Of a DNA stretch of 64,000 nucleotides, positions 13,559 to 17,596 are shown in pieces. A program made the position numbers and the translations under genes. The stretch lies in sequence record PQ511150.1, one strand, 5' to 3'. Numbering within the stretch: the first letter of the stretch is position 1; each line of letters begins with the position of its first letter. The stretch is from Escherichia phage NHEP29. The notes below the pieces were generated by a model, which had not been told where the DNA came from, searched no databases, and worked only from the letters and a program-made list of their open reading frames with translations.

Positions 13559-16500
13559 ATGGCTACTTTAAAACAAATACAATTTAAAAGAAGCAAAACC
13601 GCAGGCGCACGTCCTGCCGCTTCAGTATTAGCCGAAGGTGAATTGGCTATAAACTTAAAAGACCGTGTACTTTTTACTAAAGATGACCAAGGAAATATTA
13701 TTGATTTAGGTTTTGCTAAAGGCGGTAGTATTGACGGGAATGTTATTCATACAGGTAATTATAACCAAACCGGCGATTATACTTTAAATGGCACCTTCAC
13801 TCAAATTGGCGATTTCAATCTCAAGGGTATTGCTCGAGTAACTCGTGATATTATTGCTGCGGGTCAGATAATGACCCATGGTGGCGAACTTATTTCTAAG
13901 AGCGCCTCAACTTCTCACCTTCGTTTCTTTGATGGTGATGACCGTGAGCGTGGTATTATCTTTTCTCCTAATAATGCAGGAGCAACCAACCAAGTAGTTA
14001 ATATTCGCGTACAAGATTATTCTACCGCAAGTGAAAGCACCTATGCATTTTCGGGCAATGGTCAATTTACTTCACCTGAAGTATCGGCATGGAAATCTAT
14101 GTCAACTCCTCAGATTTTGACTGACAAAGTCATTACAGACGGGAAGAAGGCAGGTGATTATGACATTTATTCATTAGCAAATAATAATTCTAACACAGAT
14201 AAAAATAATTTACGTGTCGTACGTACCGACCCAGCGGCTGCAATGCTCCATGAAATTTGTGAAAATAACGGTATCAGTTGGTATTCTGGTTCAACCCCTA
14301 CTGATTATATGTTGTCTTTTGCTTATTCCGGTGGTTTTCAAGCAGGCCATTCGATTGCAGTAGGTATGGAATCAGGGCCTTTGACATATTCAGCTTTAGG
14401 TAAAGGTTCTATTGTTCTTGGTGATAATGATACCGGGTTTAAATGGCATCAAGATGGTTATTTCTTTAGTGTAAACAACGGTACAAGAACTTTCCTTTCC
14501 GGCCCTGCAGAAACAACCAGTCTTAGAAAAATGGTTATGGGTTATTCTGTAAACGGTACTGATTTAACTACGCCTCCGTCAGAAAACTATGCTTTAGCTA
14601 CTGTTGTTACTTATCACGATAATAACGCGTTTGGAGATGGTCAGACTCTTTTGGGATATTATCAAGGCGGTAACTATCATCATTATTTCCGCGGCAAGGG
14701 TACTACAAACATTAATACACACGGCGGTTTGTTAGTTACTCCTGGTAATATTGACGTTATTGGTGGTTCTGTTAATATCGATGGTAGAAATAATGCTTCT
14801 ACACTGTTGTTTAGAGGAAATACAACAGGATACAGCTCGGTTGATAATATGGATATTAAAGTTTGGGGTAATACGTTTGTTGATCCAAGCGGAGGTATCC
14901 GTAAAAACATTATGGAAATTTCTGATGCAACTGGCTGGATGAGCTATATTCAAAGACTTACTACTGGTGAAGTAGAAATGAACGTTAATGGTTCATTTGA
15001 ATCATCTGGTGTTACTGCTGGAGATAGAGGAGTTCACACAACAGGTGAAATTTCATCTGGAGCAGTGAATGCTCTTCGTATTTGGAACGCAGATTATGGA
15101 GCCATTTTTAGACGTTCAGAAGGAAGTCTTCATATTATTCCAACTGCTTATGGCGAAGGCGAAAATGGTGACATCGGTCCACTTCGCCCGTTTAGTATGG
15201 CTTTAGATACAGGTAAGGTCGTTATTCCTGACTTAGATTTGAGCTATGCTTCTTTTGCAGCAAATGGTTATATTAAATTTGGCGGTCATGGAGCAGGCGC
15301 TGGTGGTTATGATATTCAATATGTTCAAGCGGCTCCTATTTTCCAGGAAATTGATGATGATGCTGTAAGCAAATATTATCCTATTGTTAAACAGAAGTTT
15401 TTAAACGGTAAATCTGTTTGGTCTTTAGGTACCGAAATTGAATCAGGTACATTCGTTATTCATCATCTGAAAGAAGATGGTTCACAAGGCCATACGTCTC
15501 GTTTTAATCAAGACGGTACTGTTAACTTCCCGGATAACGTTCTGGCCGGCGGTGATATTAACATTAAAGGCATGATGACTTTTGAAGCCGGGCGTTTAGG
15601 ATCACGAGATTATTTTAAATTTAACCATTGGGGTGATAGTAATAATGCTCGTGATAACATCATCCAGTTAGAAGATAGTCAAGGCGCTCATTTTTCCACT
15701 GAACGTACTTTAGCGACAGGTGCAATTAAAACTCGTTTCTTTGGCGAAATATCCACTGATGGTACATTATACCTAAATCAGATGAATAATAGCTCTGAAC
15801 GATTCTCTATTAATAATTGGGGAAATTCAGAAGTTGGTCGCGCGGCAGTGATGGAAGTCAAAGATTCCAAAGGTTATCACTTCTATACGGAACGCAGGAC
15901 AGATAACAGTTTGAATTTTGATGTTGCTGGCAATTTTACTGCGCATGGACCTTCCGGAATAACCATCAAAAACTCATCTGGTGCACGACATATCTGGTTT
16001 AGAGATGATAGCGATGCAGAAAAGGCTGTTATCTGGGCTACAGATGATGGTATTTTACATATTCGCAATAATCATGGGGGTTCATTTAGTCATCACTTCC
16101 AGGGTGCAATGATTCTAGCGGGAGAGCGTGTTCCATATAATGGTGAATACGCTCTTATCCGTGGTAATATTTCCGGTGGTGCATGGGTAGACTGGCGAGA
16201 TCGTCCGGCTGGATTGTTGGTAGACTGTCAGGACTCACGAAATCAAGCATATAACATTTGGAAAGCTACTCATTGGGGCGAACAGCACATTGCGGCGATG
16301 GGTGTTCATGCTGGTGGTGGTAATCCTCATGTTGTATTGCATGTGGGTGGGAGTGATTATGCATTTGCAGTTAACGGTGATTTTACTGCTGGCGCTGCTG
16401 TATATTGTAACGACGTTTATATTCGTTCTGACCGTCGTCTGAAAATTAATGTTGAAGCATACGAAGAGAATGCGGTAGATAAGGTAAATAAACTCAAAGT

Positions 16501-16780
16501 TAAAACCTATGATAAAGTTAAATCTCTTTCTGATCGCGAAGTTATCGGCCATGAGATTGGTATTATCGCACAGGATTTGCAAGAAGTATTACCGGAAGCT
16601 GTTAGCACTTCTAGTGTCGGATCTCAGGATAACCCGGAAGAAATTTTAACAATTTCTAACTCTGCTGTGAACGCGCTTTTAATTAAGGCCATTCAGGAAA
16701 TGAGCGAAGAAATTAAAGAATTGAAAACGCCTCTCTTTACTAAAATTGCTCGCAAAATTAGTAAATATTTTAAATTCTAA
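13559..16780 (+). CDS. 37: long tail fibre distal subunit gp37 with C-terminal intramolecular-chaperone-like domain
   Basis: 1073-aa ORF; C-terminal ~110 aa (…YIRSDRRLKINVEAYEE…IGIIAQDLQEVLPEAV…) resembles self-cleaving chaperone domains of phage fibres. Confidence 0.9.
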   Translation: MATLKQIQFKRSKTAGARPAASVLAEGELAINLKDRVLFTKDDQGNIIDLGFAKGGSIDGNVIHTGNYNQTGDYTLNGTFTQIGDFNLKGIARVTRDIIAAGQIMTHGGELISKSASTSHLRFFDGDDRERGIIFSPNNAGATNQVVNIRVQDYSTASESTYAFSGNGQFTSPEVSAWKSMSTPQILTDKVITDGKKAGDYDIYSLANNNSNTDKNNLRVVRTDPAAAMLHEICENNGISWYSGSTPTDYMLSFAYSGGFQAGHSIAVGMESGPLTYSALGKGSIVLGDNDTGFKWHQDGYFFSVNNGTRTFLSGPAETTSLRKMVMGYSVNGTDLTTPPSENYALATVVTYHDNNAFGDGQTLLGYYQGGNYHHYFRGKGTTNINTHGGLLVTPGNIDVIGGSVNIDGRNNASTLLFRGNTTGYSSVDNMDIKVWGNTFVDPSGGIRKNIMEISDATGWMSYIQRLTTGEVEMNVNGSFESSGVTAGDRGVHTTGEISSGAVNALRIWNADYGAIFRRSEGSLHIIPTAYGEGENGDIGPLRPFSMALDTGKVVIPDLDLSYASFAANGYIKFGGHGAGAGGYDIQYVQAAPIFQEIDDDAVSKYYPIVKQKFLNGKSVWSLGTEIESGTFVIHHLKEDGSQGHTSRFNQDGTVNFPDNVLAGGDINIKGMMTFEAGRLGSRDYFKFNHWGDSNNARDNIIQLEDSQGAHFSTERTLATGAIKTRFFGEISTDGTLYLNQMNNSSERFSINNWGNSEVGRAAVMEVKDSKGYHFYTERRTDNSLNFDVAGNFTAHGPSGITIKNSSGARHIWFRDDSDAEKAVIWATDDGILHIRNNHGGSFSHHFQGAMILAGERVPYNGEYALIRGNISGGAWVDWRDRPAGLLVDCQDSRNQAYNIWKATHWGEQHIAAMGVHAGGGNPHVVLHVGGSDYAFAVNGDFTAGAAVYCNDVYIRSDRRLKINVEAYEENAVDKVNKLKVKTYDKVKSLSDREVIGHEIGIIAQDLQEVLPEAVSTSSVGSQDNPEEILTISNSAVNALLIKAIQEMSEEIKELKTPLFTKIARKISKYFKF

Positions 16781-16785
16781 CAACA

Positions 16786-16804
16786 AGGGGGAAATGCCCC
16801 CTTT
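16786..16804 (+). terminator. GC hairpin (AGGGGG-AAATG-CCCCCU) + UUU between 37 and 38
   Basis: Perfect GGGGG/CCCCC stem 6 nt after gene 37 stop; short U-tract, so attenuator or weak terminator. Confidence 0.4.
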
Positions 16805-16816
16805 GGAGTATAAATT

Positions 16817-17596
16817 ATGGCAGTAGTTGGAGTTCCTGGCTGGATTGGAAGTTCAGCCGTAAATGAAACGGGCCAGCGCTGGATGAGTCAAGCAGCTGGT
16901 CAATTAAGATTGGGTGTTCCTTGCTGGATGAGTCAATTTGCAGGTCGCTCAAGAGAAATTATTCATACACTTGGAGCAGACCATAACTTCAATGGTCAAT
17001 GGTTTAGAGACCGTTGTTTTGAAGCCGGCGGTGCACCTATAGTGTTTAATATCACCGGAAATTTAGTATCATATAGTAAAGATGTTCCTTTATTCTTTAT
17101 GTACGGCGATACGCCAAATGAATATGTTACTTTGAATATTCATGGTGGAGTTCATATGTGGGGACGAGGTGGTAACGGTAGTGTAAACGGAAACCCAGGC
17201 ACAAATGGCGGCGATGTAATCCAAAATGATATTGGTGGACGACTTCGTATTTGGAACTATGGCGTTATTGCATCAGGCGGCGGCGGTGGTGGTGCAGTGT
17301 CATTACAGAATAGCTGGGCGCCAAATGCTACAGCAGGTGGCGGTGGTGGTAGACCATTTGGCATCGGCGGAGGCGGCGTTAATTGGCCAGGTGGTAATGC
17401 TAGTTATGACGCCCCGGGCGGTGCCGGTTACACTTCCCAATTCGGCGGCGGCAATGGCGGTGATGCTGGCGCTCGTGGCGGAGATGGATGGGGTAATCAC
17501 TTATCTAGATCCGGCGGTGGTGCTCCTGGCAGAGCAGTATTCGGAAGTTCACCATCATGGGGTGCTACAGGCACAATCTACGGCTCCTGGATTTAA
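16817..17596 (+). CDS. 38: tail fibre adhesin gp38 (T2-type, glycine-rich motifs)
   Basis: 259-aa ORF with several poly-Gly blocks separating variable segments; conserved N-terminal region. Confidence 0.85.

Follow-up and report, generated by a model that had tools for sequence, protein, structure and literature searches.

INTRODUCTION

The long tail fibers of T-even phages predominantly end in a separate adhesin, gp38 (PMC3157838), and one such tip described at the structural level is that of phage S16. In its gp37(3)–gp38 complex (PDB 6F45; Dunne et al., 2018), a three-domain gp38 is plugged by three adhesin tryptophans into the trimer of gp37, the last 113 residues of which are autocleaved at DLNVS^SDRRIKK (PMC7917993). 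Phage PP01 provides a second structure (PDB 9V85; Terasaki et al., 2026), that of a gp38 that binds OmpC of Escherichia coli O157 through its loops D and E, and in T2 and T6, too, gp37 is proteolytically cleaved and gp38-capped (PMC3157838). T4 differs in that its gp38 is an unrelated chaperone of 183 amino acids (aa) and the C-terminus of its gp37 is a receptor-binding needle without a Peptidase_S74 domain. Here, we describe the corresponding module of Escherichia phage NHEP29 (sequence record PQ511150.1) at positions 13559–17596 of a stretch of 64,000 nucleotides (nt), hereafter the window. A preliminary description made from the sequence alone had delimited this span, which coincides exactly with two adjacent + strand open reading frames (ORFs) in the ORF list: gene 37, encoding the precursor of the long tail fiber distal subunit (13559..16780; 1073 aa plus stop), and, 36 nt downstream, gene 38, encoding the tail fiber tip adhesin or receptor-recognizing protein (16817..17596; 259 aa plus stop).

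The module is very probably the receptor-binding tip of the long tail fiber, of the "separate adhesin" type known from T2, T6, and S16, with OmpF as its most probable receptor. The sequence and the model directly show how the genes are structured, which domains and fold the proteins have, their homology, and the identity of the loops with those of OmpF-dependent phages. It is a common, well-characterized T2/S16-type adhesin module and, as such, already known: publications already cover its architecture, the structures 6F45 and 9V85, how cleavage proceeds, and the class of receptor used by near-identical adhesins. What the present analysis adds is the prediction of OmpF as the receptor, a predicted cleavage site between R956 and S957 of gp37, and the mosaic nature of gp37. 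That such a module sets host range, as the preliminary description had stated, is known from published work (PMC3157838, PMC12032242, PMC12892980).

THE TIP ADHESIN GP38

The 259-aa gp38 is built as the preliminary description had it, with several polyglycine blocks between variable segments. Glycine makes up 25% of the protein and 36% of aa 112–240, where it occurs in runs of six (aa 154–159), five (174–178), four (184–187), and twice three residues (210–212 and 233–235), in addition to nine GG pairs. Two Pfam families together account for nearly the whole chain: PF21721 Gp38_N matches aa 1–42 (73.5 bits, cut-off 25, E 1.4e-20) and PF05268 GP38 matches aa 47–259 (280 bits, cut-off 25, E 1.8e-83). 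Among the PHROGs, its hit is phrog_2056 (E 2.7e-110), labeled "tail fiber protein; host specificity", and a sequence comparison with the PDB yields the receptor-binding domain of PP01 gp38 (9v85, E 1.5e-72) and S16 gp38 (6f45_D, E 8.5e-49). By their scores, these matches are strong homology and not chance.

An AlphaFold2 model of gp38, computed from an alignment of 77 homologous sequences, reached a mean predicted local distance difference test score (pLDDT) of 85.5 and a predicted template-modeling score of 0.80, with pLDDT mostly above 90 over aa 112–240. When the model was compared with the PDB by Foldseek, the best match was 9v85 (root-mean-square deviation 1.8 Å), which had a target-normalized template-modeling (TM) score of 0.92, 63% identity and E 3e-26, followed by 6f45_D (TM ~0.8, E 8e-22); beyond these two, all matches in that search had E > 4. 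The predicted structure thus has the three-domain gp38 fold, consisting of a helical attachment domain, a β-helix, and, presumably, a polyglycine-II sandwich. The N-terminal attachment domain (aa 1–46; 16817..16954, + strand) contains W9, W22, and W37, of which the first two are present in 76 of the 77 homologues each and the third in 64, and which are unchanged throughout an alignment that takes in the gp38 of both S16 and T2. We take them to be the three plug tryptophans of S16, an equation drawn from conservation and not from S16 residue numbers. The specificity region (aa 112–240; 17150..17536, + strand) alternates glycine-rich motifs, which would form the polyglycine-II sandwich, with hypervariable loops; among the 77 homologues, nearly every invariant column is a motif glycine (G116–G121, G154–G158, G175–G178, and G212–G215, among others), and the loops vary.

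The glycine-rich part of gene 38 also leaves its mark on base composition. Between 17000 and 17499, G+C climbs to 0.50, compared with ~0.36–0.40 in the surroundings, with a strong positive GC skew. Foreign DNA was considered as the origin of this peak and rejected, as the peak coincides with the stretch rich in glycine (GGN) codons. Two long ORFs free of stops in alternative frames, at 17226–17603 (+ strand) and 17303–17500 (− strand), are compositional artifacts of the same GGN region and not genes.

GP37 AND THE PREDICTED CLEAVAGE JUNCTION

Almost the whole of gp37 (aa 1–1068) matches phrog_1699, "long tail fiber protein distal subunit" (E = 0). Its C-terminal domain opens at S957, within the junction NDVYIR|SDRRLK, and runs to the last residue, 1073 (16427..16777, + strand). 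PF13884 Peptidase_S74 matches its first part (aa 957–1015; 53 bits, cut-off 22, E 4.2e-14), and the domain aligns with S16 gp37 (6f45_A, E 4e-12), SDRRLK standing opposite SDRRIK; there are also weak matches to the tail fiber protein 8jov_1 and to the MYRF autoprocessing domain 7dc3. A C-terminal domain of the self-cleaving chaperone type, as proposed in the preliminary description, is therefore present, although at 117 aa it is somewhat longer than the ~110 aa given there. The serine at the start of the domain is followed five residues on by a lysine (S957 and K962 in SDRRLK), a pair that we take to be the catalytic dyad, in which S957 would act as the nucleophile together with K962. The SD.R.K motif is found in all eight T2-type gp37 proteins compared and is absent from T4 gp37.

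Cleavage of NHEP29 gp37 is predicted at R956|S957. Salem et al. placed the cleavage of the fPS phages at the homologous junction, DVYIR^SD.RLK (PMC7917993), and the junction of S16 reads DLNVS|SDRRIK as compared with DVYIR|SDRRLK in the window. The six residues preceding the site, NDVYIR (aa 951–956; 16409..16426, + strand), would form the mature C-terminus and the face on which gp38 docks. They are kept in Bas46, phiC120, FL33, fPS-2, fPS-90, and Bas47, although the 40 aa before them are 22–95% identical to those of NHEP29. Among the OmpF-dependent relatives fPS-2, fPS-90, FL33, and Bas47, which share the junction NDVYIR|SD.R.K and differ in their gp37 shafts and S74 domains, the hexapeptide persists though the preceding 40 aa are only 22–60% identical and the S74 domains 32–95%, with gp38 at 94–98%. 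Such conservation of the junction amid swapped flanks was described by Salem et al. (PMC7917993), and it fits a role of the gp37 tip strand as the docking site for the adhesin.

The same Ser-x4-Lys arrangement at the start of the domain, and the position of the domain after a trimeric fiber, are found in the S74 domains of endosialidases and other phage fibers. Those fibers, however, keep a receptor-binding or enzymatic tip of their own, whereas here the release of the domain would uncover the docking site of gp38.

COMPARISON WITH CHARACTERIZED ADHESIN MODULES

By sequence identity, the module is nearest to those of Mosigvirus and Tequatrovirus phages whose adhesins belong to the OmpF-binding group. 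Bas46 (MZ501056) and phiC120 (NC_055718) have the same gene order, gene lengths and intergenic hairpin as NHEP29, and their gp37 S74 domains are 99% identical to that of the window; unlike theirs, the gp38 of NHEP29 has S122 and A219. More distant are the structurally characterized systems. S16 has the same three-domain gp38 and an autocleaved gp37 chaperone, but its gp38 is ~47–50% identical and carries other loops, its receptor is OmpC and its gp37 is 749 aa long. PP01 gp38, the best structural match, shares the five-loop layout, yet all five loop sequences are unlike those of NHEP29. The designation "T2 type" in the preliminary description holds for the architecture, as the adhesin of T2 is likewise a separate, glycine-rich protein of ~260 aa, and T2 gp37 closes with an SD.R.K domain behind the junction NVYIR. 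It does not hold for the sequence: T2 gp38 is 53% identical and recognizes FadL, T2 gp37 is 1341 aa long as compared with 1073 aa here, and the S74 domains are 38% identical.

LOOPS AND LIKELY RECEPTOR

The five receptor loops of the PP01 crystal structure were transferred to gp38 through a sequence alignment with 9v85, which places loop A (SVNGNP) at aa 122–127 (17180–17197), loop B at aa 163–172 (17303–17332), loop C (GGVNW) at aa 186–190 (17372–17386), loop D (YTSQF) at aa 205–209 (17429–17443), and loop E (WGNHLSR) at aa 225–231 (17489–17509), all on the + strand. Over its full length, gp38 is 99.2% identical to that of phiC120, 98.5% to Bas46, 97.7% to fPS-2, 96.5% to FL33, 95.8% to fPS-90, and 94.2% to AlbertHofmann (Bas47). 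Loops B–E do not differ between NHEP29 and these six relatives, and in loop A the sole change is S122 in place of T, so that five of its six residues match fPS-2, fPS-90, FL33, and Bas47. Two further differences are outside the five mapped loops: A219, in the stretch from loop D to loop E, and I183, which phiC120 has too and which is part of a glycine-rich motif.

These comparisons gain their meaning from the relatives whose receptors have been established genetically. The dependence of fPS-2 and fPS-90 on OmpF and the lipopolysaccharide (LPS) core was derived from resistant mutants with complementation (PMC7917993), that of FL33 on OmpF from deletion mutants, with a minor effect of TolC (PMC12032242), and that of Bas47 on OmpF from an ompF knockout with complementation, the LPS core being needed as well (PMC8594841). 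For Bas46 (ChristianSchoenbein), no receptor was found in the BASEL paper's main text. To these four OmpF-dependent phages, the specificity region of NHEP29 gp38 (aa 112–240) is 95–97% identical, and the whole protein 94–98%. Against adhesins for other receptors, namely those of T2 (FadL), S16 (OmpC), T6 (Tsx), and M1, FL08, and AV119 (OmpA), the same region reaches at most 56% identity, with unrelated loops. Because the loops match those of four OmpF-dependent phages and the adhesins for other receptors are so much more distant, the porin OmpF is most likely the receptor of NHEP29 gp38; by analogy with the relatives, an intact LPS core is likely needed too.

ALTERNATIVE READINGS

Several points weigh against a tip adhesin directed at OmpF. 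The evidence for NHEP29 is wholly computational, the hosts used to measure OmpF dependence in its relatives were E. coli K-12 and Yersinia pseudotuberculosis, and the first 17 residues of the gp38 model, its only poor part, are of low confidence. Moreover, S122 occupies the first position of loop A, and it could matter because one or two residue changes in hypervariable segments can switch or widen receptor use, as between T2 and SV76 and between T6 and PST (PMC3157838). It is conceivable, then, that the architecture is the same and the receptor another one (Tsx, OmpA, OmpC, FadL, or LPS alone), reached via S122 and A219 or through the host background; the minor effect of TolC in FL33-type phages (PMC12032242) also counts in favor of this reading. 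We regard this as improbable, considering that loops B–E are the same in four OmpF-dependent phages from three laboratories, that serine for threonine is a conservative exchange, with serine found at that position also in the related adhesins of MN04 and UGJNEcP4, that A219 is outside all of the mapped loops, and that no adhesin for another receptor comes closer than the 56% given above.

A different possibility concerns the division of labor between the two proteins. It is exceedingly improbable that the arrangement is that of T4, with gp38 a mere assembly chaperone absent from virions and a retained gp37 C-terminus binding the receptor, even though close homologues go by "long tail fiber assembly chaperone/catalyst" in several records, legacy names of T4 gene 38. 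The T4 module occupies the same locus position, and the N-terminal ~660 aa of its gp37 are homologous, the first 60 aa being ~90% identical, but the alignment covers only aa 1–664 of NHEP29 gp37 (34% identity), beyond which T4 gp37 has no Peptidase_S74 and ends in the needle with PF07484 Collar and PF03335 fiber-repeat domains, neither of which Pfam finds in NHEP29 gp37. BLASTP detected no similarity between gp38 and the 183-aa T4 gp38 (best E 2.1 over 14 residues), in which the Pfam GP38 domain was not found either. Owing to this lack of similarity, to its GP38 and Gp38_N domains, and to a predicted fold equal to the crystal structures of two tip adhesins, gp38 is best read as an adhesin and not as a short T4-type chaperone, and the sequence evidence on both proteins already contradicts a T4-type module; the preliminary description was right on both counts. 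Somewhat unlikely, but to be taken more seriously, is a dual role, in which the adhesin gp38 would also be needed for gp37 to fold or assemble, trimerization being beyond the S74 domain by itself. Against it stands the fact that C-terminal domains of the S74 type need no helper as chaperones of other fibers (Pfam "Chaperone of endosialidase"), as does the reported behavior of T6 gene 38 amber mutants, with normal virion morphology and gp37 fibers that are trimerized and processed but do not adsorb (PMC3157838). Such a dual role is compatible with gp38 as the OmpF-directed tip adhesin and does not exclude it.

PROPOSED MECHANISM

Taking the homologues as a guide for autocleavage, 3:1 docking, the presence of gp38 in virions and OmpF binding, the following course of events may be envisaged. 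Genes 36–37–38 would be expressed late in infection, and gp37 would trimerize into a β-helical fiber, for which residues 957–1073 may serve as an intramolecular chaperone that subsequently releases itself between R956 and S957 by means of the S957/K962 dyad. Cleavage would expose a flat gp37 tip ending in …NDVYIR, on which a single gp38 monomer could dock by the helical attachment domain at its N-terminus, with W9, W22, and W37, the remainder of gp38 forming a small β-helix that bears the polyglycine-II sandwich. The five distal hypervariable loops would then touch an outer-membrane protein, most probably OmpF, in a reversible binding step that sets host range and comes before the triggering of the baseplate.

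POSSIBLE EXPRESSION SIGNALS AND THE INTERCISTRONIC HAIRPIN

A T4-type late promoter consensus, TATAAATA, lies at 12827..12834 (+ strand), 26 nt upstream of gene 36, and again at 17615..17622 (+ strand), before the holin gene t at the downstream boundary of the module. The only + strand matches are these two and one at 7793, before gene 34, and the position before t is annotated as a "predicted late promoter" in the fPS-2 record too. Because the window shows no enrichment of this motif (five found as compared with seven expected), the sites are no more than suggestive, and so is a late 36–37–38 transcript starting at the 12827 promoter, for which T4 serves as the analogy. A scan for sigma-70 promoters did not rise above chance in the window (28 found, 24 ± 6 expected) and was not used.

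Genes 37 and 38 are separated by a G+C-rich RNA hairpin (16784..16805, + strand; minimum free energy −14.7 kcal/mol) that adjoins the Shine–Dalgarno sequence GGAG of gene 38 (16805–16808). Its folding energy alone is not significant (z −1.7), and the case for it is made by its conserved position with varied stems: a hairpin is found at the matching spot in Bas47, T2, S16, and T4, the stems differing in a compensatory manner (GGGCC-UUCG-GGCCC in Bas47, GAGGGC-UUCG-GCCCUC in T2, others in S16 and T4). Several of these have UUCG loops; the loop in the window does not. Presumably it is one of the classic intercistronic stable hairpins of T4, and it may act in mRNA stability or translational coupling.

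MOSAIC GENE 37 AND LOCUS CONTEXT

The exact gp38 sequence is present in public assemblies, where its 90% cluster comprises 123 member sequences; the exact gp37 sequence was not found there. The best deposited match to gp37 is that of Bas46, with 93.7% aa identity; that of phiC120 has 87.7%, and the divergence is segmental: identity to Bas46 falls to 70% over aa 101–150, and the most divergent stretch (aa 91–167) is 99–100% identical to the gp37 of PSD2002, JS98, and SF. Owing to this segmental pattern and the near-identity of that stretch to other phages, gp37 is a fresh recombinant of known segments, as is typical for the locus.

In addition, gp37 contains a trimerization domain common to gp34 (PF21446 Gp34_trimer, aa 449–546; 14903..15196, + strand; 31.2 bits, cut-off 27), and aa 414–557 match the gp34 structures 4uxe and 5nxf in the PDB (E ~1e-11). 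Farther along, aa 688–790 (~15620–15930) hold two "WGNS...G(Y/A)HF(Y/S)..R" units, one of which aligns with T4 gp37 aa 483–517, and inspection of the translations shows a similar WGNS-type unit in the C-terminal part of gp34 (~10900–11050). Along with the common Gp34_trimer domain, these units point to fiber building blocks common to gp34 and gp37.

Upstream of the module, the long tail fiber block comprises gp34 (7835..11668), gp35 (11677..12801), and, directly before gp37, gp36 (12861..13550). The order 34–35–36–37–38–t is that of T-even phages, and is followed on the opposite strand by asiA, genes of the arn region and motA; Pfam and PHROG assignments bear out this layout, as do annotations from T4 and six relatives. 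The source of the module is a Mosigvirus-like T-even phage: over its first 25 kb, the window shares ~96–97% of its DNA sequence with the Mosigvirus phages ChristianSchoenbein (Bas46) and phiC120. Two observations on the neighboring genes may be added. In gp35, the proximal hinge connector, aa 58–131 match Pfam PF15711 ILEI (29.4 bits, cut-off 27, E 1.2e-06), "interleukin-like EMT inducer", an odd domain name for a fiber hinge protein. The holin ORF is listed at 17630–18301 from ATG 17630 (223 aa), but its start is probably ATG 17642, giving 219 aa as in Bas46, phiC120, and Bas47, with GGGAGG and the late promoter consensus at 17615–17622 in front of it.

The gp38 family is large, with tblastn matches in 812 phage records and 213 cluster representatives at E ≤ 1e-5 among 8,000 candidates scored, and it includes three odd records (P0006, P0021, and P0050). 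The last ~40 aa of Bp7 gp38 are unrelated (11% identity), as if the recorded sequence were frameshifted; one homologue cluster bears the name "receptor-recognizing protein [Bacillus cereus]", which probably reflects phage contamination of an assembly; and P0050 (303 aa) combines Peptidase_S74 with GP38, perhaps through read-through or a mis-called fusion that joins the end of gene 37 to gene 38. Many other deposited adhesin homologues are still named "long tail fiber assembly chaperone/catalyst" or "hypothetical protein"; in the former case, the name of T4 gene 38 is transferred to an unrelated protein.

CONCLUSION

It is interesting to consider whether the new gp37 mosaic, together with S122 and A219, gives NHEP29 a receptor or host range unlike that of its OmpF-dependent relatives. 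We see only a slim chance of this; the difference might take the form of a second porin, or of a reach into Yersinia, Salmonella, or O157 strains, and, if true, it would be a natural case of receptor range being fine-tuned via one loop residue. On the reading preferred here, the apt annotation of gp38 is that of an adhesin whose specificity region is of the OmpF type, and "assembly chaperone" should not be used for it. Since the module decides the host to which the phage adsorbs, the right annotation helps host-range prediction, phage therapy, and engineering.

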